A DNA stretch of 64,000 bases from contig NZ_JBFWNX010000019.1 in NCBI RefSeq assembly GCF_050250835.1, positions 6,549-70,548 of the forward strand, written 5' to 3'. The notes beneath the pieces were generated by a model. The model was not told the origin of the DNA, did no database searches, and saw only the letters and a list, made by a program, of their open reading frames with translations. Made by a program: the position numbers and the translations under genes. This document shows, piece by piece, positions 1,147-36,128 of this stretch. The DNA comes from Hydrogenophaga sp. Lineage in GTDB: Bacteria > Pseudomonadota > Gammaproteobacteria > Burkholderiales > Burkholderiaceae_C. Numbering within the stretch: the stretch's first letter is position 1; the number at the start of each line of letters is the position of its first letter.

Positions 1147-1174
1147 GGTCGGTGATCGCCGCATCCGGATTACA
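1147..1174 (-). promoter_or_regulatory. ECF promoter variant B (TGTAAT-N17-CGACC) for yeeE; probably leaderless transcript
   Basis: Plus strand GGTCG 1147-1151 and ATTACA 1169-1174, 17-bp spacer; the ATG starts 8 nt after CGACC. Confidence 0.75.
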
Positions 1175-1182
1175 CCGATCGC

Positions 1183-1210
1183 TGTAATGATCCGGCTCCA
1201 GGTGACGACC
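1183..1210 (+). promoter_or_regulatory. ECF promoter variant B (TGTAAT-N17-CGACC) for the Cys-rich peptide operon
   Basis: TGTAAT 1183-1188, CGACC 1206-1210, 17-bp spacer. Confidence 0.75.
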
Positions 1211-1288
1211 AAGCCCCACCAAGGACTGTTCGTGGGCATCCGGCCTCGCGCATGTCACTGGTTTCTGTCACTTCACCGGAGAACCCCC

Positions 1289-1468
1289 ATGTCATCACTT
1301 TCTTCCCGCCTGTCCCTGAGCCTGGCTGCGGCCGTTGTCACCACCGCCGCCCTGGGTGGCTGCGCCATGGCCTGCCGCGCTTGCGGCGCCAAATGCGGCA
1401 CGTCCAAGACCATGCCTAAGTGCAGCGCCTGCAAGGCCAAATGCGGCGCCTGCGCACCCAAAAAGTAA
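1289..1468 (+). CDS. 59-aa secreted Cys-rich peptide (candidate RiPP precursor or metallothionein-like)
   Basis: GGAGA SD; hydrophobic N-terminal signal-like segment; core CRACGAKCG...CSACKAKCGAC; 8 Cys in total. Confidence 0.75.
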   Translation: MSSLSSRLSLSLAAAVVTTAALGGCAMACRACGAKCGTSKTMPKCSACKAKCGACAPKK

Positions 1469-1481
1469 TCAACCCGTGCCC

Positions 1482-1517
1482 CACGTCCCCTGAACGGCAC
1501 CCCGCTCTGGGGACGTG
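1482..1517 (+). other. Intergenic stem-loop after the peptide gene
   Basis: Perfect 9-bp inverted repeat CACGTCCCC (1482-1490) / GGGGACGTG (1509-1517), no U-tract. Confidence 0.5.
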
Positions 1518-1533: not shown

Positions 1534-2241
1534 ATGCCTGCATCCGCCCTGCTGCGCCGACACTGGCGCTCGGCCCCATTCACCGAACTGGGCGCCGCCC
1601 TGCACCACGGCCAGGCCAGCGTAGAAGCCTTCGCCACCGCCACGGAAGCAGCGGGCTCCCTGCTCCAAAGCTGGGTGCAAGGCGCCGAGGTGGTGGCGTA
1701 CGAACACTACCCGCCATCCGACGTCATTGATCTGGCCAGCGGGACCCAGTTCTACTACCACGCCCACCGCACCCACGGCGACGAACACGGGCATCTGCAC
1801 GTGTTCTGGCACGCCACCGCGTCAGGCCGCCGCAGCCGCCCCACACAAGGCCGCAAGGTCTGGAAACGCAGCGCACCGACGCACATGTTGGCCATCGCGC
1901 TCGACGCCCGTGGCTTGCCGGTCAAGCTCTTCACCACCAACCAGTGGGTCACCGAAGGCCACTGGTTCGACACTGCGCTCACCCTGGCCTGCCTCGACCG
2001 CTGCCGACCCGGCCCGGTGCCCGGCCACGAAAACGCCTGCGCCTGGCTGGGCCATTTTCTGGCGCTGTACCGCCCCCTGATCGCCGACCTGCTGCAGCGC
2101 CGGGACGCCCGCCTCGCGAAGCACGGCGCCCTGGCGGATGCATTGAGCAACCACCGCCTGGAGGTGCTCAGCCAGTCGCGCATCGACTGGGCCGCCGATC
2201 TCGATGCCCTACAAGCCGAGGCGACCCGGCGCGGGCTCTGA
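1534..2241 (+). CDS. His-motif hypothetical protein (DUF6969-like from memory; start uncertain)
   Basis: Motifs QFYYHAHR, EHGHLHVF, THMLAIALD, LFTTNQWVT. Confidence 0.6.
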   Translation: MPASALLRRHWRSAPFTELGAALHHGQASVEAFATATEAAGSLLQSWVQGAEVVAYEHYPPSDVIDLASGTQFYYHAHRTHGDEHGHLHVFWHATASGRRSRPTQGRKVWKRSAPTHMLAIALDARGLPVKLFTTNQWVTEGHWFDTALTLACLDRCRPGPVPGHENACAWLGHFLALYRPLIADLLQRRDARLAKHGALADALSNHRLEVLSQSRIDWAADLDALQAEATRRGL

Positions 2242-2263
2242 GGCTGGGCACCGCCCCGGTGAA

Positions 2264-3340
2264 TCAGCGGGCCTCGACCGTGAACTGGTGGCTGTTGCCC
2301 TTGAGTACTTCGACCGTGGGCCGGTACAGGCCCGGCAGGCTGCCCGCGCGGAACTGGATCGCGAGCAGACCCGGGTTGGGCTTGCCGCCTCCGGCCGCAG
2401 GCGGAAAGCGGTCGCTGCGCAGCACCTGCCCCGAAAGCACCGGATTGCCATCGGCACCCAGCGGGCTGGTGGCCGCCTGGCCCGTGGCGCCTTTCGGTGC
2501 CGCACCGATGATGCCGCCGACCACCGTGTCGACCGCCGGGTCCAGGCGCTTGTCGCCGTTGCTGTCCTGCACCAGCAGACCACCGGTGTAGCGCGGAAAG
2601 CGGTTGATGTCGCGCGGCGCCACGCCCACACCGTTGAGCGGTGCACCGTTGGCGCCCCAGAGCAGCAGCCCCAGGTGCATGGGGGCGACCTGCCCGGTCG
2701 CTACCGTCTGGAAGTCGGTGTTCGCGCCCGGTGGCACATGGAAATTGGTGGGCGCCAGCCGTGCCTCCAGCATTTCTTCCTGCACCCGCATGCCTCCTTG
2801 CCAGACCGCCTGCACCTGGCCCTGGGCGGACCGGCGCGTGACCGTCACCGGGTAACCGCCGGTGGCCGGGTTGGTGAAGCTGCGACCGCGCAGATGAATC
2901 ACCTTGATGCCCGGTGCGTTGCCGCCTTCTGCCGCCATGTCCTTGAGCGCGGTGACGGTGATGACGTGGTCTTTCTCGACATAGTCTATGCGGTACTGCC
3001 CGGCCAGCGGCACGGCACCCTGCGGCCAGCCCTTGGTCAGCACGAGATTGGTGTCCCGGTCGGCCACGATGGGCACCGAGGCGTTGCGCTTGAACGCCGG
3101 AGACAGCGCCAGCTGCAGCGACTCGCCCGCCTTCAGGGCCAGGCCCGGTGTGGCCGGGTTGGCGTCGGGCACCAGCACAAACACATAGTCGGTCGCTTCG
3201 CCCGCCACATGCCCGTCGTATGACACCGGAGCCGGAGCGGTGAGGAGCGCCTGCGGTTTCTGCGGTTCGACGGTGCCGCACGCGGCCAGCAGCAGCACCG
3301 AAGCGCCGATCAGCGGAAGGGTTTGGGTCATGGCATGCAT
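2264..3340 (-). CDS. Lipoprotein of unknown function
   Basis: AGGAGA SD before ATG 3340, lipobox LLAAC, DSNGDKRLD Ca-binding-like motif. Confidence 0.7.
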   Translation of the reverse strand: MHAMTQTLPLIGASVLLLAACGTVEPQKPQALLTAPAPVSYDGHVAGEATDYVFVLVPDANPATPGLALKAGESLQLALSPAFKRNASVPIVADRDTNLVLTKGWPQGAVPLAGQYRIDYVEKDHVITVTALKDMAAEGGNAPGIKVIHLRGRSFTNPATGGYPVTVTRRSAQGQVQAVWQGGMRVQEEMLEARLAPTNFHVPPGANTDFQTVATGQVAPMHLGLLLWGANGAPLNGVGVAPRDINRFPRYTGGLLVQDSNGDKRLDPAVDTVVGGIIGAAPKGATGQAATSPLGADGNPVLSGQVLRSDRFPPAAGGGKPNPGLLAIQFRAGSLPGLYRPTVEVLKGNSHQFTVEAR

Positions 3341-3396
3341 GGGAAGGTCTCCTTGAAATGAGCGGTTCACCGAAGAACCCGTGGTTGAAGAATCGG

Positions 3397-4131
3397 TCAG
3401 ATGCCCACCGTGAGGTTGACCCAGGCGTCGGGCATCCACTGCACGAACAAAGCTTCGAGCCGTTTGTCCCAGCCCATCAGGATGGCCACACCCAGCAGGC
3501 CCAGCAACACGGCAAAAGCGTGGCGCACGCGATCGATGCGCGCCATCACCCAGTCGCGCACACGGTTGAAGCCGCTGCGCGAGGCGTACGCCACGGCCAC
3601 CAGGGGAATGGCCGCCCCCAGGCCAAAAACACCCAGGATCAAGCCGCCCCGCGCCAGGCCACCCTCGCTCGCCACAAGGGTGAGCGCCGAGCCGAGCAAA
3701 GGACCTGAGCAGGGGCTCCAGACCAGGCCCAGCACACCGCCGAGCAGAAACGCACCAGTGAGCGAACCGCCCTGCAGCCCCGACGATGCGGCATGGGCCG
3801 AATTGGCCAGCGGCAACATCCAGCGCGTGAAGCGTTCGCCCAGCGCGGGCACCAGCATCACCACCGCAAAGGCGATCAACATGGCGGCACCCGCAAAGCG
3901 CACGGTGTCGCCATCCACCCCCAGCGCCGGCCCGAGGGCGCCGAGCACCACGCCGATGCCGGCGAACGAGGCAACCATGCCCAGGCCCATGGCCACCGGC
4001 CCCAGCCGGTTGCCCTGCAGCGCACCACCGACCACCAGGGGGAGCATGGGGAAAACGCAGGGTGAGAGCGTCGTCAGGCCTCCGGCGGCCAGGCTGAAAC
4101 CGAGTTGTGGCAGAGAGACCAGATCAGACAT
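3397..4131 (-). CDS. ccdA: CcdA/DsbD-type transmembrane electron transporter
   Basis: LSPCVFPMLP and WSPCSGPLL Cys motifs, about 6 TM helices. Confidence 0.85.
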   Translation of the reverse strand: MSDLVSLPQLGFSLAAGGLTTLSPCVFPMLPLVVGGALQGNRLGPVAMGLGMVASFAGIGVVLGALGPALGVDGDTVRFAGAAMLIAFAVVMLVPALGERFTRWMLPLANSAHAASSGLQGGSLTGAFLLGGVLGLVWSPCSGPLLGSALTLVASEGGLARGGLILGVFGLGAAIPLVAVAYASRSGFNRVRDWVMARIDRVRHAFAVLLGLLGVAILMGWDKRLEALFVQWMPDAWVNLTVGI

Positions 4132-4144
4132 GCGTGTGTTGCGC

Positions 4145-4525
4145 TCAGAGCGCGGACTTGAATGCGGTGCGAATGGCGGCTGGGTCGGTGTCACCCACCA
4201 GGCGCGCCCACTCCTGTTGCCCGCGCAGCACCACGAAGGTGGACTGGGCGCGCACGTTGAACCGCTTCTTGATGTCCTTCTCGGTGTCGTAGTTGACGAC
4301 CATCACCGTCAGGTCCAGACCCGACTCGCTCTTGAGGGACTGCAAGACCTTGTCCTGCGCGCGGCAGGTCGGGCACCAGTCGGCATGGAAGTGCAGCGCC
4401 ACCGGCTGGTTGCTGGCCTGGGCCTGCGCCAGCAGCGCGGCAGAAAAGGGTTTGATCTCCAGCGCGTGCGAGGCAGCACTGGCGAGCAACAGAACAGAGG
4501 CAAAAAAGACGCGGCGAAGAACCAT
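4145..4525 (-). CDS. Periplasmic thioredoxin-family protein
   Basis: Signal peptide, FHADWCPTC, AQST cis-Pro loop equivalent. Confidence 0.85.
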   Translation of the reverse strand: MVLRRVFFASVLLLASAASHALEIKPFSAALLAQAQASNQPVALHFHADWCPTCRAQDKVLQSLKSESGLDLTVMVVNYDTEKDIKKRFNVRAQSTFVVLRGQQEWARLVGDTDPAAIRTAFKSAL

Positions 4526-4560: not shown

Positions 4561-4588
4561 AGTCGCCCCCACGCGTGCATTCCTTACA
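4561..4588 (-). promoter_or_regulatory. ECF promoter variant A (TGTAAG-N17-CGACT) for trx-ccdA-lipoprotein
   Basis: Plus strand AGTCG 4561-4565, CTTACA 4583-4588, 17-bp spacer. Confidence 0.8.
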
Positions 4589-4603: not shown

Positions 4604-5827
4604 TCAGGCCAGGTCGGCCGGCGCCGCAACCGCTGCGTCCAGGTGAAGCCTGTGCAGACACACCCCTTCGAGCGGATCGTGTGGCGCTTCCCAAGGCTTT
4701 TCCGCCAGCGCCTGGCGCCCCAGCTTCAGCCCGGCGTCCGAACGCATGCCCACTCCGCGGGGCGTGAAGTCAATGTCCTTGCTCTGGTCCGCACCCGGCA
4801 GGTGCGGCGCCATCAGGCTGACGACGTGCATCACCGTGTTGCAACCCCAGGCGCCCAGCTCGCGCGCGTGGGCGCTGTCGGGCACTTGCCGGGCCAGGTC
4901 GCGGATGATGTGGCGCAGCCGGTGCAACTGGCGCTGGCGCTCGATGTGCGATTCGGCCCGGCTGGCGAACTGGATGTCTTTCAAACGGCCCTGCACGTCC
5001 CAGAGGCTTTGCGGTTCATCCCCGTGCGGCTCCCACAGGCGGCAGGCAAAGATCAGCGAGTCGCAGCGCGGCTTGTCGTCCAGCACGACCTCGATCGGCG
5101 TGTTCGAGTACAGCCCGCCGTCCCAGTACGGGTCGCCGTCGATGCGCACGGCACCGAAAGCCGGCGCCAGCGCCCCTGAGGCCATGATGTGGTCGACGCC
5201 GAGGCGTTCGTGCCGACTGTCGAAATACCGCATCTGCCCGGTGCGCGCGTTGACCGCGCCCACCGTGATGCGCATGGGCGAGCGCGCGAGGTATTCAAAA
5301 TCCACCAGCTCACCGAGTGTGTCGCGCAGCGGCTGCGTGTCGTAGTACGCCGCCTGTTCGATGCCGAGCGCCTGGCGCGGGTTGAACCAGGCGGGCAGGT
5401 TGGGCTTGAAGAAATCGGGAATGCCCTGCCCCACCACACCCAGGTTGTGCTGCCACTGCGCCAACCCGGCCAGCGAGGGCCACAGTGCAAAGACGCCTTG
5501 CCCCGCCTGCCGCGACTGCATGCGCGCCCAGAACTCACGCAAGCGCGCCAGCCGGTGCTGGGGATGGTTGCCAGCGATCAATGCGGCGTTGATCGCACCG
5601 ATGGAGGTGCCGATGACCCAGTCCGGCTCCTTGCCGCCTTCGTGCAGGGCCTGGTAGACACCGAGGTGAAACGCCCCTACCGCGCCACCGCCCTGCATGA
5701 CCATCACGGTCTGCTGGGGCGGGCAGTTCGTGTTCGGCATTTCCATCCTGGTACGCGCCACCTTCGCGGCCACCGTTTGGGCGGAATCGCGGGGTTGGCG
5801 GGATGGGGTTTTTGCGCGTGTGGCCAT
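4604..5827 (-). CDS. Patatin-like phospholipase/esterase with DUF3734-like C-terminus (start uncertain)
   Basis: QGGGAVG, GTSIG nucleophile elbow, WDGG. Confidence 0.85.
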   Translation of the reverse strand: MATRAKTPSRQPRDSAQTVAAKVARTRMEMPNTNCPPQQTVMVMQGGGAVGAFHLGVYQALHEGGKEPDWVIGTSIGAINAALIAGNHPQHRLARLREFWARMQSRQAGQGVFALWPSLAGLAQWQHNLGVVGQGIPDFFKPNLPAWFNPRQALGIEQAAYYDTQPLRDTLGELVDFEYLARSPMRITVGAVNARTGQMRYFDSRHERLGVDHIMASGALAPAFGAVRIDGDPYWDGGLYSNTPIEVVLDDKPRCDSLIFACRLWEPHGDEPQSLWDVQGRLKDIQFASRAESHIERQRQLHRLRHIIRDLARQVPDSAHARELGAWGCNTVMHVVSLMAPHLPGADQSKDIDFTPRGVGMRSDAGLKLGRQALAEKPWEAPHDPLEGVCLHRLHLDAAVAAPADLA

Positions 5828-5843
5828 ATCGATCCGCCTTTCG

Positions 5844-6644
5844 TTATTGCGCCGTCCAGCCGCCGTCGATGGGCATCACCGCGCCGGTGATGCTGGCGCC
5901 GGCGTCGGAACACAGGAAAGCCGCGTAGGCCGCCACCTGCTCGATGGTGACGAAGCGCTTGGTGGGCTGTGCGTGCAGCAGCACATCGTCGATCACCTGC
6001 TGTTCGGTCAGGCCGCGCGCCCTGGCCGTGTCGGGGATCTGCTTTTCCACCAGCGGTGTCCACACATAGCCCGGGCACAGCGCGTTGGCGGTGATGCCCT
6101 GGGTGGCCACTTCCAGCGCCACCGTTTTGGTGAACCCGGCGATGCCGTGTTTGGCCGCCACGTAGGCGGACTTGAACGGCGATGCCACCAGCGCGTGCGC
6201 AGAGGCCACGTTGATCACCCGGCCCCACCCCTTCGTCTTCATGCCGGGCAAGGCCAGCCGCGTGGTGTGGAACGCGGCCGACAGGTTGATCGCGATGATC
6301 GCGTTCCACTTGTCCACCGGAAACTCGTCCACCGGCGCCACGTATTGAATGCCCGCGTTGTTCACCAGGATGTCGATAGCGCCGCGGGTGCCGATGGCTT
6401 CTTCCATCATGGCCTGCGTGGCCGCCGGATCGGACAGGTCGGCGCCGCTGTGGTGCACGTTCACCCCGTGCAGCTGCGACAGCTCGCTGCGCAGTTGTTC
6501 GATGGCTTCGATTTCGCCGAAACCGTTGAGCACGATGTCGCACCCCGCCGCGGCCAGCGCCGTCGCGATACCGAGACCGATACCGCTGGTGGACCCTGTG
6601 ACGAGGGCGGTTTTTCTCTTGGCGCGGGTGGTCGGGTGGGACAT
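5844..6644 (-). CDS. bdhA: 3-hydroxybutyrate dehydrogenase (SDR)
   Basis: TGSTSGIG, NNAGIQ, YVAAKHG, CPGYVWTPLV. Confidence 0.9.
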   Translation of the reverse strand: MSHPTTRAKRKTALVTGSTSGIGLGIATALAAAGCDIVLNGFGEIEAIEQLRSELSQLHGVNVHHSGADLSDPAATQAMMEEAIGTRGAIDILVNNAGIQYVAPVDEFPVDKWNAIIAINLSAAFHTTRLALPGMKTKGWGRVINVASAHALVASPFKSAYVAAKHGIAGFTKTVALEVATQGITANALCPGYVWTPLVEKQIPDTARARGLTEQQVIDDVLLHAQPTKRFVTIEQVAAYAAFLCSDAGASITGAVMPIDGGWTAQ

Positions 6645-6695: not shown

Positions 6696-6723
6696 AGTCG
6701 CTGCCCATCACGGCATCCTTACA
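6696..6723 (-). promoter_or_regulatory. ECF promoter variant A (TGTAAG-N17-CGACT) for bdhA-patatin
   Basis: Plus strand AGTCG 6696-6700, CTTACA 6718-6723, 17-bp spacer. Confidence 0.8.
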
Positions 6724-8862: not shown

Positions 8863-8890
8863 TGTCACGTTTTTTCAGGTTGTTCCGACC
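8863..8890 (+). promoter_or_regulatory. Degenerate ECF promoter (TGTCAC-N17-CGACC) for the DUF4148 gene
   Basis: TGTCAC 8863-8868, CGACC 8886-8890. Confidence 0.5.
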
Positions 8891-8943: not shown

Positions 8944-9423
8944 ATGAAAACCGTACTCTCTGCCGTGGTCATTGCCCTGTCCACACTGGCCGCCGGCCAG
9001 GCCCTCGCTGCCGACCCTGCAGCGCCCAAAACCCGCGCCGAAGTGCAGGCCGAGCTGGCTGAGGCCATTCGCAATGGCGACATGATGGCGAACGGCGAGT
9101 CTGGCGCCACTTACAGGCAGCTCTACCCCAGTCGCTACCCGCAACAGACTGCCACGATCGGCAAGACCCGGTCCGAGGTGCAGGCTGAACTGGTCGAAGC
9201 CATTCGCAATGGCGACATCATGGCGAACACCGAAAGCGGCGCCACCCTGCGGCAGCTCTATCCGAGCCGATATCCCCAGCAGCCTGCATCGCTCGGCAAG
9301 ACCCGCGCTGAAGTGAAGGCCGAACTGGCCGAGGCCGTCCGCAACGGTCACACGATCGCCGACGGCGAAAACGGTTCCAGCTTCAACCAGATCTATTCGG
9401 GTCGCTACGGACGGCGTTCCTGA
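8944..9423 (+). CDS. Secreted DUF4148-repeat protein (3 repeats)
   Basis: Signal peptide; KTRAEVQAELAEAIRNG-type repeats. Confidence 0.8.
   Translation: MKTVLSAVVIALSTLAAGQALAADPAAPKTRAEVQAELAEAIRNGDMMANGESGATYRQLYPSRYPQQTATIGKTRSEVQAELVEAIRNGDIMANTESGATLRQLYPSRYPQQPASLGKTRAEVKAELAEAVRNGHTIADGENGSSFNQIYSGRYGRRS
9028..9411 (+). repeat. Intragenic tandem repeat, 135-bp (45-aa) period
   Basis: Units begin at 9028, 9163 and 9298. Confidence 0.8.
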
Positions 9424-9606: not shown

Positions 9607-9634
9607 TGTAAGACGCGAGACTGCTAGAGCGACT
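9607..9634 (+). promoter_or_regulatory. ECF promoter variant A (TGTAAG-N17-CGACT), putative autoregulatory promoter of ECF sigma 1
   Basis: TGTAAG 9607-9612, CGACT 9630-9634. Confidence 0.8.
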
Positions 9635-10308: not shown

Positions 10309-10535
10309 ACATTTTTCACTCCTGTGAGCGGGCGGCAGAACTCATGTCCCAGGCACTGGACGAACCCCTGGACCTGGCCGACCAGATGCGGCTGCGCATC
10401 CACCTCAAGATGTGCGGCAACTGCCAGGAGGTGGAGAAGCAGATGGCCACGCTTCACGCGCTGGCACCTCAGCTGGGGCTGCTCGATCTGGACATGAGCG
10501 ACGAACGCGAGCCGCCCGTGTCGAACACACCTTGA
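10305..10535 (+). CDS. zf-HC2 (ZAS) anti-sigma factor 1
   Basis: ATGA overlap with the sigma stop; C...HLKMCGNC. Confidence 0.85.
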   Translation: MNIFHSCERAAELMSQALDEPLDLADQMRLRIHLKMCGNCQEVEKQMATLHALAPQLGLLDLDMSDEREPPVSNTP

Positions 10536-17408: not shown

Positions 17409-17413
17409 GGCAC

Positions 17414-27383: not shown

Positions 27384-27411
27384 TGTAAGGACCCGGGACA
27401 TCGCAGCGACT
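27384..27411 (+). promoter_or_regulatory. ECF promoter variant A (TGTAAG-N17-CGACT) for the TVP38-reductase operon
   Basis: TGTAAG 27384-27389, CGACT 27407-27411. Confidence 0.8.
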
Positions 27412-27468: not shown

Positions 27469-29619
27469 ATGAAACGAATCCTGATCCTTGCCACCGTCGT
27501 GCTGCTGGTGGCCGCCTATTTCGGGCTGGGGCTGAACCGGTACCTGACCCTCGCCGCCGTGCAGGAGCGCCTGGGGGAATTTGAAGCCATGCGTCAGGCG
27601 GCCCCTGTCGCCACGGCGCTGGGCTTCTTTGGCCTGTATGTGCTGGCCACCGCCTTGTCCCTGCCCGGCGCGGTCATCCTCACGCTGGCGGCGGGCGCCC
27701 TGTTCGGCTTGGTGGCCGGCACGCTGATCGTCTCGTTCGCCTCCAGCGTGGGCGCCACGCTGGCGTTTCTGGCCTCGCGCCACCTGCTGCGCGACGGCGT
27801 GCAGGCGCGCTTTGGCAACCGGCTCAAGGCCATCAACGACGGCATGGCCCAAGACGGCGCGCTGTACCTGTTCACGCTGCGCCTGATTCCGGTGTTCCCG
27901 TTTTTCCTGGTCAACCTGCTCATGGGCCTGACCCCGATCCGCACCGGCACCTATTACGCGGTCAGCCAGCTGGGCATGCTCGCGGGCACCCTGGTCTACG
28001 TCAACGCCGGCACGCAGCTCGGCCAACTCAACAGCCTCTCGGGCATCCTCTCGCCCGGCGTCCTGCTTTCTTTTGTCCTGCTCGGAGTGTTTCCCATGAT
28101 CGCCAAGTCCGCCCTCGGTTTTCTGCAACGTCGCCGGGTGTATGCCAAGTGGCAGCGCCCCAAGACCTTTGACCGCAACCTGGTGGTCATCGGTGGCGGC
28201 GCGGCGGGTCTGGTCACTTCTTACATCGCGGCGGCCGTCAAAGCCAAGGTCACGCTGGTCGAGGCGCACAAGATGGGCGGCGACTGCCTGAACTACGGCT
28301 GCGTGCCCAGCAAGGCGCTGATCAAGTCGGCCAAGCTGGCCACCCAGATGCGCCGCGCCGACCACTACGGCCTGGAGGCCGCCACCCCCGCCTTCAGCTT
28401 CAGGCAGGTGATGGCGCGGGTGCACAAGGTCATCAGCGAGGTGGCGCCACACGACAGCGTGGAGCGCTACACCGGGCTGGGCGTGGAGGTATTGCAGGGC
28501 CGCGCCCGCATCGTCGATCCCTGGACGGTCGAGATCGCGCTCAACGGCGGCGGCACCCAGCGCCTGACCACGCGCAGCATCGTCATCGCCGCCGGTGCCC
28601 GCCCCTTCGTGCCGCCGCTGCCCGGCCTGGACGATGTGGGCTACGTCACCAGCGACACGCTGTGGGACGAGTTCGCCCAACTTGACGCGCCCCCGGCCCG
28701 CCTGGTGGTGCTGGGCGGTGGACCGATCGGCTGCGAGCTGGCGCAGAGCTTTGCGCGCCTGGGCTCGCAGGTGACCCAGGTGGAAATGGCGCCGCGCATC
28801 ATGATCCGGGAAGACGAAGAGGTCTCGGAACTGGCGCGTGACTCGCTGGTGCGCGACGGTGTGGATGTGCTCACCGGCCACAAGGCGCTGCGCTGCGAGC
28901 GCGAGGGCGAACGCAAATTCATCGTGGTGGAGCACCAGGGCCAGGAAAAGCGCATCGAGTTCGACGCGCTGCTGTGCGCGGTCGGCCGCGTGGCGCGGCT
29001 GCAGGGCTACGGTCTGGAAGAGCTGGGCATCCCCACGCAGCGCACGGTGGTGGTCAACGAATACCTCGAAACGCTGTACCCCAACATTTTTGCCGCGGGC
29101 GACGTGGCCGGGCCGTTCCAGTTCACCCACACGGCCGGGCACCAGGCCTGGTACGCCGCCGTCAACGCCCTGTTCGGCAGCTTCAAGAAATTCAAGGTCG
29201 ATTATTCGGTGATCCCCTGGGCCACGTTCATCGAGCCCGAGGTGGCGCGTGTGGGCCTGAACGAACAGGACGCGAAGGAAAAGAAGATCCTTTACGAGGT
29301 CACGAAATACGGCATCGACGACCTGGACCGCGCCATCGCCGACGGCTCTGCGCACGGCTTCGTCAAGGTGCTGACCGTACCGGGCAAAGACCGCATTCTG
29401 GGCGTGACCATCGTGGGCGAACATGCCGGCGACCTGCTGGCCGAGTTCGTGCTGGCCATGAAACACAGCCTGGGATTGAACAAGATCCTGGGCACCATCC
29501 ACACCTACCCCACGCTGGCCGAGGCCAACAAATACGCCGCTGGGGAATGGAAACGCGCCCACGCGCCCCAGGGCGTGCTGGCCTGGCTGGGCCGCTACCA
29601 CGCCTGGCGCCGAGGCTGA
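27469..29619 (+). CDS. TVP38/SNARE-associated membrane domain fused to a pyridine nucleotide-disulfide oxidoreductase (MerA/LpdA-like)
   Basis: LFTLRLIPVFPF DedA/TVP38 motif; GGDCLNYGCVPSK; GGGPIG; no C-terminal CC. Confidence 0.9.
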   Translation: MKRILILATVVLLVAAYFGLGLNRYLTLAAVQERLGEFEAMRQAAPVATALGFFGLYVLATALSLPGAVILTLAAGALFGLVAGTLIVSFASSVGATLAFLASRHLLRDGVQARFGNRLKAINDGMAQDGALYLFTLRLIPVFPFFLVNLLMGLTPIRTGTYYAVSQLGMLAGTLVYVNAGTQLGQLNSLSGILSPGVLLSFVLLGVFPMIAKSALGFLQRRRVYAKWQRPKTFDRNLVVIGGGAAGLVTSYIAAAVKAKVTLVEAHKMGGDCLNYGCVPSKALIKSAKLATQMRRADHYGLEAATPAFSFRQVMARVHKVISEVAPHDSVERYTGLGVEVLQGRARIVDPWTVEIALNGGGTQRLTTRSIVIAAGARPFVPPLPGLDDVGYVTSDTLWDEFAQLDAPPARLVVLGGGPIGCELAQSFARLGSQVTQVEMAPRIMIREDEEVSELARDSLVRDGVDVLTGHKALRCEREGERKFIVVEHQGQEKRIEFDALLCAVGRVARLQGYGLEELGIPTQRTVVVNEYLETLYPNIFAAGDVAGPFQFTHTAGHQAWYAAVNALFGSFKKFKVDYSVIPWATFIEPEVARVGLNEQDAKEKKILYEVTKYGIDDLDRAIADGSAHGFVKVLTVPGKDRILGVTIVGEHAGDLLAEFVLAMKHSLGLNKILGTIHTYPTLAEANKYAAGEWKRAHAPQGVLAWLGRYHAWRRG

Positions 29620-29632
29620 AAGGAAAACCACC

Positions 29633-30679
29633 ATGGCCAAGACACCCGCCCCGCAGGTCCATCTGCAACTGCCCGACGGCCCTGAACGCGACGCCCTGCG
29701 CGCCGGTCTGCTGGCCCTGCAATGCATCCCGGTGAACCTGCCGCCGCCGGGTGCAGCGCTCACAGAGCAGCTGGAACACCTGGCGCAGGACCCCAGGGCG
29801 GTGGTGTTCCTGGACATCTCCAATGCCCTGCCCAGGGTCACTCACCGGTTCGACCGCATCCTCAAGACCTGGCCCCAGGCCCTGAAGGCCCGAACGGTGC
29901 TGACCCGGCTGGCCGCCGGGCACGTGAGCCCCGCCGACCGCACCTGGGTGCAGTCGCTGGGGTTTGCCGACCTGATCGCTTCGTTCGAAGACCACGCGCC
30001 TGCATCGCCCTTGCGGCGATCGCTGGACATGGTCGCGGCCACCGTGGGCTTGCCTGCGCTGGCGGCCGGGGACCTTGACCGCTACCTGCGCGCCGTCCCC
30101 ACCGCGCCGTCCAGCCTGTCGCCCCGCGCGCTCATCCGCGCTCGCACAGGACTTGAAGCCGAGGCGCTGGCGGACCTGCTGCAGTTCAAGCTCGACATCC
30201 GCGACCGCAGCTACCACCTCAAGAAGTACCCCGCCTGTTTTCTCGCGACCGAGGCGGTGGCCTGGATGGGCTCGCATTTCAAACTGGGGCGCGCGGAGGT
30301 GATCGAAGTTGGCGTGGCCTTGCAGACCCTGGGCCTGCTCTACCACGTAGCCCACGAACAGGCTTTTGCCGACGAGGACCTGTTCTTCCGGCTGCGCGCA
30401 CCGGCCCAGTTGCCCAACGTGAACCTGGGGCTGGTCCTGCAGACCCTGCGCGATCGATTGGTGGTGGTGGACCGCAGCTACCTCGGCAAGGACTACCCGA
30501 GCTGCTGGATCGGCCAAGAGGCGGTCGATGCGCTCTGCGCCAAACGCAACATCACGCGCCATGAGAGCCAGCTGATCCTGCACCGGCTGATGCAGTTCGG
30601 GTGCTTTGAACACGTTGTCGGCGAACATGGTTTCATCGACGGCAACTTCTTCTACCGGTTCAACGAAGGCCTGGCCTGA
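29633..30679 (+). CDS. Protein with two DEP domains and a degenerate receiver-like N-terminus
   Basis: IRDRSYHLKKYPACFLATEAVAW...LYHV..EQAF.DEDLFFRL and VVDRSYLGKDYPSCWIGQEAVD...FEHV..EHGFIDGNFFYRF. Confidence 0.8.
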   Translation: MAKTPAPQVHLQLPDGPERDALRAGLLALQCIPVNLPPPGAALTEQLEHLAQDPRAVVFLDISNALPRVTHRFDRILKTWPQALKARTVLTRLAAGHVSPADRTWVQSLGFADLIASFEDHAPASPLRRSLDMVAATVGLPALAAGDLDRYLRAVPTAPSSLSPRALIRARTGLEAEALADLLQFKLDIRDRSYHLKKYPACFLATEAVAWMGSHFKLGRAEVIEVGVALQTLGLLYHVAHEQAFADEDLFFRLRAPAQLPNVNLGLVLQTLRDRLVVVDRSYLGKDYPSCWIGQEAVDALCAKRNITRHESQLILHRLMQFGCFEHVVGEHGFIDGNFFYRFNEGLA

Positions 30680-30696
30680 ACCGACATCACGCACCG

Positions 30697-31371
30697 ATGC
30701 GCTGTTCCATCATCGTTCCCATGCTCAACGAAGCGCAGGGCTTGCCTCGCCTGCTGGCGCGGCTGCGCGCGCTAGAGCGCCAGGGATGCGAGGTGCTGAT
30801 CGTGGACGGCGGCAGCGACGACGGCGGTGCTGAGCGGGCTGCGCAGGCTGGGTTTCGGGTGCTGTCGTCGCCGCGGGGGCGCGCCCGGCAAATGAACCAG
30901 GGCGCCGCACACGCCACAGGCGACGTGCTGCTGTTCCTGCACGCCGACACTCAACTGCCTGACGGCGCCCTTGTCACCCTCCGCCGAGCACTGCAGCGGT
31001 CCGGCGCGCCCTGGGGCCGGTTCGACGTGGTCATCGAGGGCCGCCACCCCATGCTGCGCGTGGTGGCCTGGCTGATGAACCTGCGCTCGCGCTGGACCGG
31101 CATCGCCACCGGCGACCAGGCGATCTTCGTCACACGCGAGGCCTTCGACACCGTGGGCGGCTACCCCGACCAGCCCCTGATGGAGGACATCGAACTGTCC
31201 AGCCGCCTGCTCCATCGCGCCCGCCCGGTGTGCATTCGCGACCGTGTGCAGACCTCGGGGCGCCGCTGGGAAAGCAGGGGCGTCTGGCGCACCGTGCTGC
31301 TGATGTGGCAACTGCGCTGGGCCTACTGGCGTGGCGCACCGGCCGTGCAGCTGGCACAACGTTACCGGTGA
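30697..31371 (+). CDS. GT2 glycosyltransferase (TIGR04283-like)
   Basis: IIVPMLNEA, VDGGS.D, GRARQMN.GA, FLHADT, TGDQAIFV, LMEDIE, TSGRRW. Confidence 0.9.
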   Translation: MRCSIIVPMLNEAQGLPRLLARLRALERQGCEVLIVDGGSDDGGAERAAQAGFRVLSSPRGRARQMNQGAAHATGDVLLFLHADTQLPDGALVTLRRALQRSGAPWGRFDVVIEGRHPMLRVVAWLMNLRSRWTGIATGDQAIFVTREAFDTVGGYPDQPLMEDIELSSRLLHRARPVCIRDRVQTSGRRWESRGVWRTVLLMWQLRWAYWRGAPAVQLAQRYR

Positions 31372-31378
31372 CCGCCTC

Positions 31379-32008
31379 ATGGCCGATGAACCCCGCATCG
31401 TCATCTTCGCCAAGGCACCCGTGGCGGGCCTGGCAAAGACCCGGCTGATCCCGGCGCTGGGTGCACAGCGGGCGGCCCGACTCGCTGCCAAGATGCTGAA
31501 CCACGCGGTGGAACAGGCCCTGGCCAGCGAGGTCGGTCCGGTGGAGCTGTGCGTGACGCCAGCGCCGCAAGACCCGATGTGGGCCGGGCGGTTGCCCAGG
31601 CATGCAGCGTTGACCTTCAGTGACCAGGGCGATGGCGATCTGGGCGAGCGCATGGCGCGGGCCGCACGGCGCACGCTGGAGGCCGGTCGGCCGGTGCTGC
31701 TGATGGGAACCGACTGCCCCGCCCTCACCGCAGAGCGCCTGCGCTCCGCCAGCGAGGCCCTGATGACGAGCGATGCCGTCATGATCCCGGCAACCGATGG
31801 CGGCTATGTGCTGCTGGGACTGCGACGTTTTGCCGTCAGCCTGTTCCATGACATCGCATGGAGCACCGAGCACGTGGCAGCAGCCACGCGAGATCGGCTT
31901 TGCGCCCTGGGTTGGCCCTTGAACGAAAAGGCACCGCTACACGACATCGACGAGCCCGATGACCTGCGTTGGCTCCCGACCGACTGGGACGGCGTTAGTC
32001 GGGTCTGA
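31379..32008 (+). CDS. TIGR04282/DUF2064 CofC-like nucleotidyltransferase-fold protein
   Basis: IFAKAP..G.AKTRL, QGDGDLGERM, GTDCP, PATDGGYVLLG, WST, DIDEPDD. Confidence 0.88.
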   Translation: MADEPRIVIFAKAPVAGLAKTRLIPALGAQRAARLAAKMLNHAVEQALASEVGPVELCVTPAPQDPMWAGRLPRHAALTFSDQGDGDLGERMARAARRTLEAGRPVLLMGTDCPALTAERLRSASEALMTSDAVMIPATDGGYVLLGLRRFAVSLFHDIAWSTEHVAAATRDRLCALGWPLNEKAPLHDIDEPDDLRWLPTDWDGVSRV

Positions 32009-32606
32009 ACACCTGCATGCCCGTGGCGATGCGCGTGAGGATCGTGAGCGCGCACAAGGCGGAAAACCCATAGGCCAACACACTGAACGCTTCAGGCCAC
32101 AGGCACATCAGCACGAACACCGTGATGGTTTCTGTGCTCTCGGAGAGCCCCCCCAGGTAGTAGATGCCCTTGCCAGCGTACGCGACGCTTGACAGCCCTC
32201 TTTGAGCGGCCAGCACCGCAAAAGCCAGAAAACTGCTGCCCGTACCGACGAACGAAAACAGCAACACAGTGGAAGCGAGGGCATGCTGCTCTGGCTTGGC
32301 GAGCGCGAACGCCATCGGAATGGACGCATAGAAAAGAAAATCCAGGGCGATGTCGAGGAACGCGCCTCGGTCCGTGGGCTGTGTCAATCGGGCCATGGTG
32401 CCGTCCAGCCCATCGGCAAGGCGATTCAGAAAGATCGTGATCAAGGCCCACTGAGACATCCCCAGAGCGATCAACGGCACTGAAAGCAGCCCGATCACAA
32501 AGCCCACCCAAGTGAGGTGATCGGCCTTCAATCCCCAGTTCAACAGCCGCAAGGCAACGGCTTGCAGCGGGGATTTGAGTCGCTGGTTGAGCGTTGCGTC
32601 AAACAT
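31995..32606 (-). CDS. ynjF: CDP-alcohol phosphatidyltransferase family (YnjF-like)
   Basis: DGLDGTMAR...GAFLDIALD signature. Confidence 0.88.
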   Translation of the reverse strand: MFDATLNQRLKSPLQAVALRLLNWGLKADHLTWVGFVIGLLSVPLIALGMSQWALITIFLNRLADGLDGTMARLTQPTDRGAFLDIALDFLFYASIPMAFALAKPEQHALASTVLLFSFVGTGSSFLAFAVLAAQRGLSSVAYAGKGIYYLGGLSESTETITVFVLMCLWPEAFSVLAYGFSALCALTILTRIATGMQVFRPD

Positions 32607-33246
32607 GCTGGGCCTGCCACTGGTGAATGTCCATGACCCGCCCACCCTGAGGCACATCGCCTGGGTCGTGGGTGACCAACAGGGTAGGAATGCCTTGACG
32701 CGCGATTTGCTCGAACACCAGCTCGCGGAACTGCACACGCAAACTGGCGTCGAGCTTGGAAAATGGTTCGTCCAGCAGCAGCGCACAAGGCTCGGCCAGC
32801 AGCGCCCGCATCAAACTCACACGGGCGCGCTGCCCGCCCGACAATGTGGCGGGGTCGCGGTCGTGGAATCCGGCCAGACCGATGTCCTGCAACGTCTGCT
32901 CCACCCGGGCGCGCCGCGCGGCAGCGCTACCCACCGCGCCCGGCAAGGCAAAGGCCAGGTTCTGCCCCACGCTCAGGTGCGGAAACAGCAGGTCGTCCTG
33001 GAACAGGATGCCGATGCCCCGCGATTCCACCGGCAGGCCATCGCGCCGCTGGCCGTCCAGCCACAGCTCGCCACTGGCCTGGAAAGCGGGGTCGAGATCG
33101 CCCACCAGCCAGTTCAGCAAGGTGGATTTGCCCGAGCCCGAGGCGCCGGTGATGGTCGCCACGGCACCAGCCTCCACCCGCAGGTTCAGGTTCGTGACCA
33201 GCGCCAGGCGGCCCTGCGCAATGGTGAGGTTCTTGATGTCCAGCAT
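32599..33246 (-). CDS. ynjD: ABC transporter ATPase (YnjD-like)
   Basis: GASGSGKS, LSGGQ, LLDEPF. Confidence 0.88.
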   Translation of the reverse strand: MLDIKNLTIAQGRLALVTNLNLRVEAGAVATITGASGSGKSTLLNWLVGDLDPAFQASGELWLDGQRRDGLPVESRGIGILFQDDLLFPHLSVGQNLAFALPGAVGSAAARRARVEQTLQDIGLAGFHDRDPATLSGGQRARVSLMRALLAEPCALLLDEPFSKLDASLRVQFRELVFEQIARQGIPTLLVTHDPGDVPQGGRVMDIHQWQAQHV

Positions 33247-33247
33247 G

Positions 33248-34915
33248 TCAGCGAAGTCCTTTGCGGCAACGACCCGCCCATTGGGCCATCAGCGCAGCGA
33301 GCCCGAAACCCAGCAGCGGCAAGGCGATCTGCAGCAGCGCCTGCACCGCCAGCACGCGGCGGTTGCCGCCGGCGCTCAGGCCCACCGCCTCGGTCGTGAC
33401 CGTCACAAACCGACCACCGCCCGCAAACAGCGTGGGCAGGTACTGCGCCACGCTGACGGCAAAGCCGACCGCCAGCGCGGCCAGGATGGGCTTGATCAGC
33501 ATCGGCCACTTCACGCGCAGACAGGCCCCCAGGGGGGACTGCCCGAGCGCGCGCGCGGTGGTCATGAGGCGGCGGTCAAAGGCGCGGTAGGGGCCGACCA
33601 GCGTGAGCACCATGTACGGCAGCACCCACAGCAGGTGGCTCCAGACCAGGCCGGCGGCGGTGCCGTCGCCCTGCAGGCGCAGCAGCGCGGCGTACTGCGC
33701 CGCCACCAGAGGCAGCGCGGGAATGATCAGCGGCACATACAGCACGGCGTTGAAGCGCTGCGGCCCCCACTCCAGCCAGACCAGGGTGGCCGGCAGGCAC
33801 AGCAGCGTGGCGGCAGCCGCCAGCCACAGCGTGGTCCAGAACGGTGCCCAGTCGGCCTGCATCCAGGTGCGCAGCGACAAGGCGTCGGGCCACAGTGCCG
33901 GGAAGAACCAGGTGTCGGCCAGCGACCACAGCACCAGCACCGCCACCACCGCATAGCCCACCAGATACAGGGGCTGGTGCAGGCCCAGCCGCGACGCTGT
34001 TGCCGCTGGCTTTCGTTCGCCCGCCGGGTAGGCCGCGCGCCGCGCGATCTGCCGCCAGGCCCACCGCGCACCACCGGCGATCAGCAGGAACAGCCCCAGC
34101 AGCACCAGCGAAGCCGCCGCCCCTTTGGCCTGCGTGGCCGCATCGGGGTCGGTCAGCCACTGCCAGACCAGCACGGCCAGTGTGGGTGGCGTGCTCGGCC
34201 CCAGGATCACCGCCATGTCCACCACCGACAGGCCATAGGCGAGCACCGCCGCCAGCGGCCAGCCCAGGCGCGGCAGCAGCTGGGGCCACAGCACATGACG
34301 CCAAGTCTGTGCGCGGTTGTAGCCCAGGGATCGGGCCACCACCATGTGCCGCTGCACCGTCTGCTCGCCCAGCACCGCCACCAGCACCCAGAGCAGGAAC
34401 CAGCTTTCTTTCAAGCCCAGCGCCAAGGCCAGACTCAGCGCAAAGGGGTCCTGCACCGTGGTCCATGGCGGCGGCTCCAGCCAGCCCAGCAACGGCGCCA
34501 CCGCCCGCACCAGCCAGCCGGACGGCGAGAGAAGGAAAAAAAGCCCGACGGCAAACGCCGCGTGGGGCACCGACAGCAGCAAGGGCAGCCGCCGCTGCAG
34601 CGCCAGCCAGCGCGGCCCCGGATACAGCGCGGTGGCCAGCCCGGCCGCCAGTCCCACCCCCAGCGCAGTGCCCAGCCCGGCAGACAGCAGGGTCGCGCGC
34701 AAGGCCTGTGGCCACTGGGTGTCGGCCCACAGCGACTGCCAGACCGCCAGGTCCAGGGCCGGCACGAGCGCCCAGTACAGGCCCGGCAGCATGGGGCCGA
34801 GGATCAGCGCCACCGGCAGCGCCGCCAGCCAGACCGGCGACAAACGCCGTCGGGCTCCCGAAGAGCCGGGTGGCGAGCTGCGCCGGATCAGCGGGAACCG
34901 TAGCGCTTGAGCCAC
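33248..34915 (-). CDS. ynjC: ABC transporter permease (YnjC-like; start uncertain)
   Basis: Two permease repeats, PHAAFAVG, AVSVAQYLPTLFAGGGR. Confidence 0.85.
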   Translation of the reverse strand: MAQALRFPLIRRSSPPGSSGARRRLSPVWLAALPVALILGPMLPGLYWALVPALDLAVWQSLWADTQWPQALRATLLSAGLGTALGVGLAAGLATALYPGPRWLALQRRLPLLLSVPHAAFAVGLFFLLSPSGWLVRAVAPLLGWLEPPPWTTVQDPFALSLALALGLKESWFLLWVLVAVLGEQTVQRHMVVARSLGYNRAQTWRHVLWPQLLPRLGWPLAAVLAYGLSVVDMAVILGPSTPPTLAVLVWQWLTDPDAATQAKGAAASLVLLGLFLLIAGGARWAWRQIARRAAYPAGERKPAATASRLGLHQPLYLVGYAVVAVLVLWSLADTWFFPALWPDALSLRTWMQADWAPFWTTLWLAAAATLLCLPATLVWLEWGPQRFNAVLYVPLIIPALPLVAAQYAALLRLQGDGTAAGLVWSHLLWVLPYMVLTLVGPYRAFDRRLMTTARALGQSPLGACLRVKWPMLIKPILAALAVGFAVSVAQYLPTLFAGGGRFVTVTTEAVGLSAGGNRRVLAVQALLQIALPLLGFGLAALMAQWAGRCRKGLR

Positions 34916-36063
34916 TCGGTCTCCAGCGCCTCCACCCAGCTGGCGTGGGGCTCGGCCAGCGTGGGCACGGCCTCGGCCAGTGCACCGGGCGCGGTCTTGC
35001 GCATGGCGGCCTGGGTGGCGGACGGCAGCTTGTTCACGTCCAGCACGCTGCCATCACCCCAGACGGTGATGTCGGCCTTGCGGGCCTGGGCCTCGGGCGA
35101 CAGCAGGAAATTGGCCACCACCTGAGCGCCCGCCGCCGCCTTGGCGTTGACGGGGATGCCGACGAAGTGCACGTTGCCAATGGTGCCGCCGGTGAAGCCG
35201 AAGCTGTAGGCGGTGGCGGGCAGCTGGCGCGTGGCAATCAGGTTGGCGGCCTCGTTGGGGTTGAAGGTCAGCGAGAGCTTGAGCTCGCCGTCGGCCAGCA
35301 TGCGGTGCATCTCGGCCGCACTGGCGGGAAAGGCCTTGCCACCGCGCCAGAGCTGCGGGTGCAACTGGTCCAGGTACGCCCACAGCGGCGCGGTCGAGGT
35401 GTTGAAGCTGGCGGGTGTGACAGGCACCTGCAGCACCTTGCGATCCGGGGCCAGCTCGATCAGCGCCTGTTTGACGAAGGTGGTGCCGTGAAAGTCGGTC
35501 GGCTTGGGGTAGCTCACCCGACCCGCGTTGGCCTTGGCAAAGGCCAGCAAGTCTGCGGCCGAACGGGGCGGCACGGGTGTCTTGGCCTTGTCGGCGATGA
35601 AGGTCAGCTGCGCGGTGCCCCAGGGCGCCTCATAGCCGTCGGTGGGCACCGAGAAATCGCTGCGCACCGGCTTGTTCAGGTCGACCGCGCCCCAGTTGGG
35701 CAATGCTTCGGCCCAGGGACCGAACAGCAAGCCGCCTTGCTTGAGGTTGCGGAAGTTCTCGCCGTTGATCCACATCAGGTCGATCGAACCATCGGTGCGG
35801 CGCCCGGCTGCCACCTCGGTCTGCACCCGCTTGACCACCTCGGCCGTGTCCGTCACCTTGACGTGACGAAGCTCCACGCCATAGCGGCTCTTGACCTGCT
35901 GCGCCACCCAGCCGATGTAGGCATTGGTTGCCTCACTACCGCCCCAGGCGTTGAAAAACACAGTCTGGCCTTTGGCATCGGCCTCGGTCTTGGCCCAGTC
36001 GGCGCTCGCGGCCAAAGGGAACGACAGGCTGAGGGCCAGGGTGGTCAGGGGAAACCATTTCAT
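34888..36063 (-). CDS. ynjB: ABC transporter substrate-binding protein (YnjB-like)
   Basis: Signal peptide; GQTVFFNAWGG, DLMWINGENF, EAPWG, GNVHFVGIP. Confidence 0.88.
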   Translation of the reverse strand: MKWFPLTTLALSLSFPLAASADWAKTEADAKGQTVFFNAWGGSEATNAYIGWVAQQVKSRYGVELRHVKVTDTAEVVKRVQTEVAAGRRTDGSIDLMWINGENFRNLKQGGLLFGPWAEALPNWGAVDLNKPVRSDFSVPTDGYEAPWGTAQLTFIADKAKTPVPPRSAADLLAFAKANAGRVSYPKPTDFHGTTFVKQALIELAPDRKVLQVPVTPASFNTSTAPLWAYLDQLHPQLWRGGKAFPASAAEMHRMLADGELKLSLTFNPNEAANLIATRQLPATAYSFGFTGGTIGNVHFVGIPVNAKAAAGAQVVANFLLSPEAQARKADITVWGDGSVLDVNKLPSATQAAMRKTAPGALAEAVPTLAEPHASWVEALETEWLKRYGSR

Positions 36064-36100
36064 GCGTGAACGCTCCGTATAAGAGGATGGGAAAGCCCAT

Positions 36101-36128
36101 AGTCGGATGAGCACCCCAAATGCTTACA
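36101..36128 (-). promoter_or_regulatory. ECF promoter variant A (TGTAAG-N17-CGACT) for ynjBCDF
   Basis: Plus strand AGTCG 36101-36105, CTTACA 36123-36128. Confidence 0.8.

Follow-up and report, generated by a model that had tools for sequence, protein, structure and literature searches.

A candidate ECF sigma factor regulon on a mobile island of Hydrogenophaga sp., related to the sigma-E/MseR system of Neisseria

Sigma/anti-sigma pairs and a recurrent motif on the island

The DNA analyzed here is a 64-kb stretch (the window) of the genome of Hydrogenophaga sp., corresponding to C19:6549-70548 in an assembly of 4,263,384 bp and 27 contigs. Genes were mapped using Pfam, NCBIfam and the gene calls on an identical record. 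The left part of the window belongs to a genomic island, whose right end is marked by a tyrosine integrase gene (37281-38732, −; Phage_integrase and Arm-DNA-bind_3 domains) located 181 bp from the 3′ end of guaA (38914-40605). Subjects of this study are two genes for extracytoplasmic function (ECF) sigma factors on this island, each with its anti-sigma gene, and ten copies of a bipartite motif which are candidate promoters for these sigma factors. Positions refer to the window unless a contig (C) or locus is named; G and L numbers denote genomes and loci.

ECF sigma 1 (203 aa; 9697-10308, +) matches TIGR02943 with 170.8 bits and ECF sigma 2 (212 aa; 12223-12861, −) with 233.2 bits, the cut-off being 162.2; in a six-frame search of the genome, the respective scores were 170.5 and 232.9 bits. 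The two proteins are 42% identical. A stop/start overlap joins each sigma gene to an anti-sigma gene downstream. Anti-sigma 1 (76 aa; 10305-10535, +) has the pattern C7...H33xxxC37xxC40 of zinc-binding anti-sigma (ZAS) proteins, and zf-HC2 is its only Pfam family. Anti-sigma 2 (78 aa; 11993-12229, −) has Cys4, His30, Cys34 and Cys37 at the same positions as MseR of Neisseria. Both score above the NF052368 cut-off and are, judged by sequence, ZAS proteins of the MseR type. Altogether, the genome has exactly three TIGR02943 sigma genes, each next to one of its three NF052368 anti-sigma genes, and two of these pairs are on the island. The sigmas probably belong to the family formerly labeled ECF13 and now ECF293; assignments to ECF16 and ECF18 were excluded.

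A preliminary description of this DNA had listed nine intergenic copies of the motif, each oriented toward a downstream gene. Searching for TGTAAK-N17-CGACY recovered all nine at 1147 (−), 1183 (+), 4561 (−), 6696 (−), 9607 (+), 13245 (−), 13342 (+), 27384 (+) and 36101 (−). All lie between genes and point to a start codon 7-150 nt beyond the last motif base. The expectation by chance, put at about 0.03 in that description, agrees with 100 dinucleotide-preserving shuffles of the window, in which matches averaged 0.03 and numbered at most 1. A scan of the island against the whole genome, which had been suggested as a check, returned the same nine sites only and no comparable density elsewhere. 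When the pattern is relaxed to TGTAA-N18-CGAC, the sixth base thereby counting as spacer, ten matches are found genome-wide, every one on contig C19, while spacings of 16, 17, 19 and 20 yield 2, 8, 9 and 4 scattered matches. The tenth relaxed match (C19:2197, 4.35 kb left of the window) ends in CGACA and has the lowest score; a group II intron surrounds it, with RF02012 on one side and the reverse transcriptase (RT) open reading frame (ORF) on the other, and it was rejected as a promoter, being probably a chance match. In a position-weight scan the sites score 21-31 bits and the next best match 17 bits, but the matrix was built from these sites and the comparison is thus circular. Allowing one mismatch adds three matches in the window, compared to 4.8 expected, of which two are inside coding sequence and the third is the site at 8863-8890. 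The part between 39 and 64 kb, where none had been seen by eye, has no match even with one mismatch. Spacers and flanks of the island sites are unrelated to each other.

Six of the exact sites have the form TGTAAG...CGACT. The one at 4561-4588 (−; footprint with L004 and L008) is located 35 nt upstream of an operon (2264-4525, −) with trx (4145-4525) and ccdA (3397-4194), and the one at 6696-6723 (−; footprint with L003, L004 and L086) is 51 nt upstream of genes for an SDR (5844-6644) and a patatin-like phospholipase (4604-5827; together 4604-6644, −). A site at 9607-9634 (+; gap 62 nt; footprint with L003) precedes the operon of sigma 1 and anti-sigma 1. The bufferin operon, consisting of bufA (DUF2282), MNIO/DUF692, DUF2063, DoxX and a C92-like peptidase (13435-16964, +), follows the site at 13342-13369 (+) after 65 nt, and in more than 20 further loci bufA is preceded by the motif as well. 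The site at 27384-27411 (+; gap 57 nt) heads genes for a VTT/DedA-fused FAD disulfide reductase, a DEP protein, and the TIGR04283 and TIGR04282 ‘arsenosugar’ transferases (27469-32008, +); orthologous sites exist in 15-19 loci, usually with ArsS as the first gene. Finally, 36101-36128 (−; gap 37 nt) lies before genes for a YnjB-like substrate-binding protein (SBP), a permease, an ATP-binding cassette (ABC) ATPase and a CDP-alcohol phosphatidyltransferase (31995-36063, −).

The remaining three exact sites read TGTAAT...CGACC and continue with AAG. Two of them stand back to back: P_yeeE (1147-1174, −) is followed after 7 nt by the ATG of yeeE, encoding a YeeE/YedE-type sulfur/selenium transporter (168-1139, −), and 1183-1210 (+) precedes, with a gap of 78 nt, an operon (1289-2241, +) for a 59-aa Cys-rich lipobox peptide (1289-1468) and a DUF6969 protein (1534-2241). 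The −35 boxes of this divergent pair are 8 bp apart around a GATC-centered palindrome. Orthologues of the Cys-peptide in L010, L011 and L013 are preceded by the motif, too. The third site (13245-13272, −; gap 150 nt; footprint with L003, L004, L005 and L086) heads an operon which begins with a gene for an nrtS-like small membrane protein (12858-13094, −), continues with sigma 2 and anti-sigma 2 and ends with a CMD/AhpD-family protein (11427-11996, −). The motif is thus found upstream of both sigma operons of the island and of about 30 orthologous ones, which is consistent with autoregulation as shown in Neisseria.

A tenth site, TGTCAC-N17-CGACCAAG (−10 part CGACC AAG), is located at 8863-8890 (+), 53 nt before the gene for a DUF4148 repeat protein (8944-9423, +). 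Its presence had been reported correctly, but the term “degenerate” does not hold: the same variant recurs before DUF4148 orthologues in two congeners, G009 (L087:9146) and G008 (L088:11012), where these genes adjoin sigma-1 orthologues. For this reason, the site is considered conserved rather than decayed, and it is probably functional.

Operons headed by the motif cover about 28 of the approximately 45 island genes in the window. The earlier wording of an “island-wide” regulon is therefore adequate for about 60% of the genes and does not apply to several operons that are free of the motif. Some further features of the cargo were recorded. A 358-aa lipoprotein with the lipobox LLAAC (2264-3340, −) is apparently encoded by the third gene of the trx-ccdA operon; it is an orphan with no match in Pfam or NCBIfam and no homologue in the loci fetched for comparison (see below). 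Two ORFs in this area, 2204-3223 (+) and 1755-3281 (−), were dismissed as shadow frames of this gene. At 16995-18750, merR-merT-merP and two small ORFs run into cusCBA; this cluster is motif-free and contains no merA. A Pyr_redox-SelD fusion (TIGR03169 N-terminal domain plus SelD; 25066-27348), 6 bp after cusA, is motif-free as well; numerous other genomes have its homologue immediately behind the motif, at the head of a SelD-like-nrtS-sigma operon. The host genome lacks ArsS, MTAP and ArsM despite having TIGR04283 and TIGR04282 in two copies each, so that the ‘arsenosugar-type’ set is partial.

Mobility of the island and distribution of the motif

Comparison within the genus shows the 3′ end of guaA to be a variable integration hot spot (L106-L109), as judged from the sequences flanking it. 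In G002, which has no island, DNA syntenic to contig C13:31.8-42.4 kb directly abuts guaA. A homologous integrase (84% nt identity) is found at guaA of G009 (L109, C1:1208940-1222561) with unrelated cargo, and G013 has yet other neighbors. Toward the left, the contig begins 6.5 kb before the window and is still island-like there (ParB-like gene, group II intron, Usp, SulP). The group II intron (L002, C19:1756-3893; Rfam RF02012 and RF00029), 2.7-4.8 kb left of the window, contains an RT/maturase ORF, and the ParB-like gene is located further left. A search of the assembly for direct repeats (≥14 bp) of sequence from the att region found none, and GC content does not differ between island and genome.

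Sigma factors of the TIGR02943 family occur in 18 of 24 genomes of the genus. In 16 of these the sigma is the sole copy, with about 47% identity to sigma 2. An orthologue of sigma 2 was found in one of 24 congeners only (G009, 80% identity, 1.9 Mb from its guaA), and sigma-1 modules are present in G008 and G009, located elsewhere. The third pair of the host genome is part of a system at C4:293000-312500, comprising a TIGR02943 sigma and a ZAS anti-sigma, bufA-MNIO-DUF2063-DoxX, SBP, TIGR04283/TIGR04282, a VTT-reductase (71% identical to the island copy) and a SelD-like gene. Its sigma (311.8-312.3 kb; 229.7 bits on TIGR02943; 45-48% identical to sigma 2) is of the type found as the sole copy in the 16 genomes, while the island pair is accessory; thus, the island pair appears to be acquired and the C4 system resident. 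Three motif sites are present in the C4 system, at C4:300839 (−), 311722 (−) and 312229 (+), each with a spacer one base shorter than on the island. The last of these, TGTAAGGAA-N14-CGACCAA, is part of the terminal (3′) coding sequence of the resident sigma, some 100 nt ahead of the anti-sigma gene, and corresponds to the residues Cys-Lys-Glu...Pro-Thr; orthologous positions exist in L083-L096, L098 and L101. All congeners examined have retained its rare TGT codon, which suggests an internal sigma-dependent promoter for the resident anti-sigma.

For a wider comparison, a set of 80 loci encoding relatives of sigma 2 (51-92% identity) was compiled from beta- and gammaproteobacteria; 79 of these loci are non-duplicate (1.3 Mb). 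L001 was not accepted as an independent copy: with 100% identity over 22,283 bp, it represents the same or a near-identical strain. In the 79 loci, TGTAA-Nx-CGAC has 3, 4, 3, 43, 121, 6, 0, 3 and 5 matches for x = 14 to 22, corresponding to an approximately 35-fold enrichment of the island motif at its own spacing. When CG[AT]C was permitted in the 80 loci plus L001, all 130 of the N18 matches had CGAC. Sorted by the first downstream ORF, the sites precede sigma operons (about 30), Pyr_redox/SelD-like genes (14), bufA-MNIO (14), CMD (5), trx-ccdA (4), C92 (3), DUF6969 and the Cys-peptide (2, or 5-6 by tblastn), SDR (2) and DUF2064 (2); using tblastn, the VTT-reductase was found after 15-19 sites and yeeE after one. 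Families absent from the host genome also follow the motif elsewhere, namely ArsS (TIGR04167; 21 sites), MTAP (16) and an ArsM-like methyltransferase (7). ArsS, a radical SAM protein, is normally encoded first, before the VTT-reductase (L008, L020, L024, L025, L028, L032 and others). Aligning the loci at the motif shows that its −35 and −10 boxes are kept while spacers and flanks have diverged, from GC-rich Comamonadaceae to AT-rich gammaproteobacteria, and the family consensus is TGTAAGAAW-N14-CGACTAA. Counting the motif in 40 whole genomes of relatives was not informative: there are 3-47 matches per genome, the reversed control gave higher numbers, and genomes with and without the sigma were not separated. 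Nevertheless, the same motif stands before the same gene families around 79 sigma homologues. By this comparison of sequences, the regulon is of old origin, occurs widely among beta- and gammaproteobacteria, and was packaged by the island rather than assembled there.

Related modules are also found on plasmids, with 69 records in PLSDB. Two of these, NZ_CP119142.1 (L103) and NZ_CP119140.1, are 2.17-Mb sequences of Neisseria gonorrhoeae, almost unannotated and evidently chromosomes filed as plasmids. In Klebsiella quasipneumoniae, the conjugative IncFII plasmid pKAM645_4 (L104, 23.1-29.3 kb) carries a module within a Tn7-like element, in which sigma-zf-HC2 faces DUF2282-DUF692-DUF2063-DoxX-CMD-MsrP-MsrQ and TGTAATGAT-N14-CGACTGAT is located upstream of DUF2282. 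The 34-kb plasmid pAURM-2 of Acinetobacter ursingii has a module with motif sites as well, where CGAC and CGTC forms occur side by side. Both modules resemble the island in the sigma family (43-50% identity), the zf-HC2 anti-sigma, the gene set DUF2282-DUF692-DUF2063-DoxX(-CMD) and the motif before the bufferin genes. They differ from it by having one sigma, one or two motif sites, and MsrPQ in place of the large extra cargo.

Relation to characterized ECF systems

The closest characterized system is sigma-E of Neisseria (Ecf, NMB2144/NGO1944) with MseR (NMB2145). Using tblastn, sigma 2 and Ecf of N. gonorrhoeae are 39% identical over residues 20-205 (E 3e-36), and a small ZAS anti-sigma is encoded directly downstream of the sigma in both systems. 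The Neisseria operon, which is autoregulated, shares with the island a linkage to DoxX, a Cys-rich peptide, DUF692 and DUF2063; in the gonococcus, the operon DoxX-Cys-peptide-DUF692-DUF2063-sigma-MseR is preceded by TGTCAGTTTTTCCGACAAAATCCGTCTAAC (TGTCAG-N16-CGTCTAA). The published consensus consists of a −35 box GTMAGBWTT, a spacer of N12/13 and a −10 box CGTCTAAH, and the mapped transcription start site (TSS) is six nt beyond the −10 box; Cys4, Cys34 and Cys37 of MseR are required for anti-sigma activity (PMC2893595). In layout and geometry, (T)GTMAG...N...CG(T/A)CTAA, the two resemble each other (PMC2893595): the −35 box and spacing of the island consensus (TGTAAG GAW ... CGAC TAA) match those of Neisseria, but the third base of the −10 core is A here and T there. 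By analogy, transcription would start about 9-10 nt beyond the C of CGAC, and not 6-7 nt downstream of CGAC as proposed before. Applied to yeeE, whose ATG follows CGACC after 7 nt, this rule places the transcript start at or beside the A of the ATG, and the yeeE mRNA is probably leaderless.

Apart from these similarities, there are differences in size and composition. Ten promoters are predicted here, compared with two known in Neisseria (own operon and msrAB). Two sigma/anti-sigma pairs are located on an integrase-bearing island, in addition to a third resident pair, and extra cargo comprises Trx-CcdA, the VTT-flavoprotein reductase, the ‘arsenosugar-type’ transferases, YeeE, SDR-patatin and an ABC importer. 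As predicted from the sequence, the island regulon would be about five times larger than that of Neisseria, with a CGAC core in its −10 boxes and with duplicated regulators.

Bufferin operons (DUF2282-DUF692-DUF2063-DoxX) are also controlled, under metal stress, by ECF16 sigmas, i.e., SigF-NrsF of Caulobacter, RpoE7-EcfR7 of Sinorhizobium and RpoQ-RsqA of Cupriavidus (PMC3511200, PMC6180224, PMC11626156). Their promoter, (T)GTAAC(C)-N16/17-CGAA, is close to the island motif in the −35 box and spacing but different in the −10 box, and NrsF (DUF1109), a membrane protein of six helices, takes the place of a soluble ZAS anti-sigma (PMC3511200, PMC6180224, PMC13492112). Known ECF16 regulons are small, with two or three promoters. 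On the island, the −10 core is CGAC in 10 of 10 sites of the window, the sixth base of the −35 box in the nine exact sites is G or T and never C as in ECF16, and no DUF1109 match was found beside the sigmas, whose neighbors are the 76- and 78-aa zf-HC2 proteins. In the genome of Caulobacter vibrioides, used as a control, no TIGR02943 match exceeded the cut-off. Thus, of the two precedents named earlier for DUF692 operons under small zinc anti-sigmas, Neisseria SigE/MseR is apt and Caulobacter SigF is not, since the latter is an ECF16 system with a membrane anti-sigma and a CGAA −10 box.

The thiol-oxidation switch SigR-RsrA of Streptomyces (ECF12) is similar with respect to its soluble ZAS anti-sigma, in which Cys11, Cys41 and Cys44 align with Cys4, Cys34 and Cys37 of MseR and hence of anti-sigma 2, and its regulon is positively autoregulated and rich in thioredoxin-type functions. 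In contrast, the sigma family and promoter differ, the RsrA match of anti-sigma 1 is sub-threshold (22 bits, cut-off 62.5), and in Neisseria the MseR system showed no response to diamide or H2O2.

Interpretation of the sites and significance

In our view, the ten sites very probably serve as promoters for RNA polymerase equipped with the island’s own ECF sigma factor or factors, paralogues in TIGR02943 and relatives of Neisseria sigma-E. The preliminary description, in which such promoters tie unrelated operons into a mobile regulon, is in this respect supported by sigma family, promoter geometry, enrichment and the comparisons on mobility. Transcription from the sites, the assignment of a sigma to each of them and the stimulus are inferred from sequence. 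Following the precedents of Neisseria and RsrA, each sigma would be held inactive through the Zn-Cys site of a small, cytoplasmic MseR-type ZAS anti-sigma, the product of the next gene downstream, and modification of the anti-sigma cysteines would release it. The likeliest trigger would be an agent that reacts with thiols, whether an oxidant, an electrophile, or a soft metal or metalloid. Once freed, the sigma would transcribe its own operon in positive feedback and about eight further operons, approximately 28 genes in all. The island would thus represent a horizontally acquired, self-contained copy of the regulon in a genome already holding a resident one. Candidate stimuli may be deduced from the cargo: copper from the bufferins (PMC11626156); thiol or disulfide damage from Trx-CcdA, CMD/AhpD and the flavoprotein reductase; and arsenic- or selenium-type metalloids from ArsS, ArsM-like proteins, TIGR04282/3, SelD-like proteins and YeeE.

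Several observations weigh against this interpretation. The −10 core is CGAC on the island and CGTC in the characterized promoters of Neisseria, so that recognition by the TIGR02943 family is deduced from co-occurrence. Several island operons have no motif, namely DUF427-HAD-CMD1, merR/merTP-cusCBA-(Pyr_redox-SelD fusion), AraC and APH, and neither has the integrase. The MseR system of Neisseria is not induced by H2O2, diamide or singlet oxygen (PMC2893595). Finally, the resident C4 sigma could read the same sites, given its 45-48% identity to sigma 2. If it were the main driver of the island promoters, or if the three paralogues cross-talked freely, the island sigmas would be redundant. The C4 sigma would control a paralogous set (bufA-MNIO, VTT-reductase, SBP, GT2/DUF2064) via the same boxes, and N17 and N18 spacings are both used in genomes with a single sigma. 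However, core-type loci of the genus use N17 only (no N18 in about 14 loci) and the island N18 only, and both island sigma genes are intact, have a cognate anti-sigma each and are preceded by the motif themselves, which is what one expects of active autoregulated regulators. Such redundancy is, in our view, very unlikely. An even less credible explanation, which we regard as extremely improbable, is that the motif is the operator of a conventional transcription factor or a repeat of a mobile element. An AraC-family gene (10537-11385) does sit between both sigma operons. Nevertheless, the motif is asymmetric and strictly oriented to the downstream gene, with a fixed spacing of 17/18 and a promoter-like distance to the start codon; its −35/−10 layout matches that of the characterized homologous sigma, and it co-occurs with the sigma gene in dozens of genera, mostly with no AraC homologue downstream of the site. 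Copies of a repeat would share their spacers and flanks, which these sites do not.

A different question is whether the two island sigmas share the sites. In the window, TGTAAT goes with CGACC(AAG) at three of three sites and TGTAAG with CGACT at six of six, with a chance probability of about 1/84 at fixed margins. This would fit insulated regulons with separate sensors, in which sigma 2 reads TGTAAT...CGACCAAG only (own operon, yeeE, Cys-peptide, perhaps DUF4148) and sigma 1 reads TGTAAG...CGACT only (own operon, trx, SDR, bufA, VTT-reductase, SBP). Each sigma operon bears its own variant, the predicted −35 recognition helices differ (ADNCRM in sigma 1, PTNLNV in sigma 2), and the pattern is kept in L003, L004 and L086, although these are close relatives and do not provide independent support. 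On the other hand, the 121 sites in the other loci, nearly all with a single sigma within reach, show no co-variation (Fisher p = 0.26) and mixed forms are common, while G008 has the sigma-1 module without sigma 2 and yet a site of the CGACCAAG type beside sigma 1. A strict division into two classes was rejected in view of this lack of co-variation outside the clade and of the G008 counter-example, and we judge a split of the regulon to be rather unlikely. Partitioning is not supported by the sequences beyond the clade of L003, L004 and L086 and possible within it. In an extended version, the two island pairs would be kept apart from each other by position 6 of the −35 box and position 5 of the −10 box, and from the resident pair by a spacer of 18 versus 17, the island sensors would respond to different thiol-reactive stimuli, and the resident system would have its internal promoter for negative feedback. 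Insulation by spacer (N18 on the island, N17 in the resident system) is weakened by the use of both in single-sigma loci for orthologous targets; bufA, for instance, has N17 in L003-L006 and N18 on the island. This extended version is distinctly unlikely; if it were true, an acquired ECF regulon could be plugged into a host running the ancestral one without cross-activation.

Returning to the island’s own sigma factors as readers of the sites, the mechanism is conventional ECF regulation: the system is a larger, mobile relative of Neisseria sigma-E/MseR and not a new mechanism. Since, moreover, reading a regulon from an ECF motif is standard practice, we consider the novelty to be modest. No description of the extended regulon was found in the literature searched, including a search for TIGR02943. 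The only studied relative, sigma-E/MseR of Neisseria, has two known promoters and no known inducer. The island adds a testable list of co-regulated genes, in which thiol damage and soft metals or metalloids (Cu, As, Se) are the candidates for the signal. Here and in dozens of further beta- and gammaproteobacteria, one thiol-based switch would be linked to bufferin copper metallophores, Trx-CcdA, a membrane-fused flavoprotein disulfide reductase, ArsS, ArsM-like proteins, TIGR04282, TIGR04283, MTAP, SelD-like proteins and YeeE, and orphan families, i.e., DUF6969 with the Cys-rich lipopeptide, DEP and DUF4148, would be tied to the same switch. As a complete package of sensor, regulator and targets which moves on an island and on plasmids, the predicted regulon bears on how stress regulons spread among bacteria.

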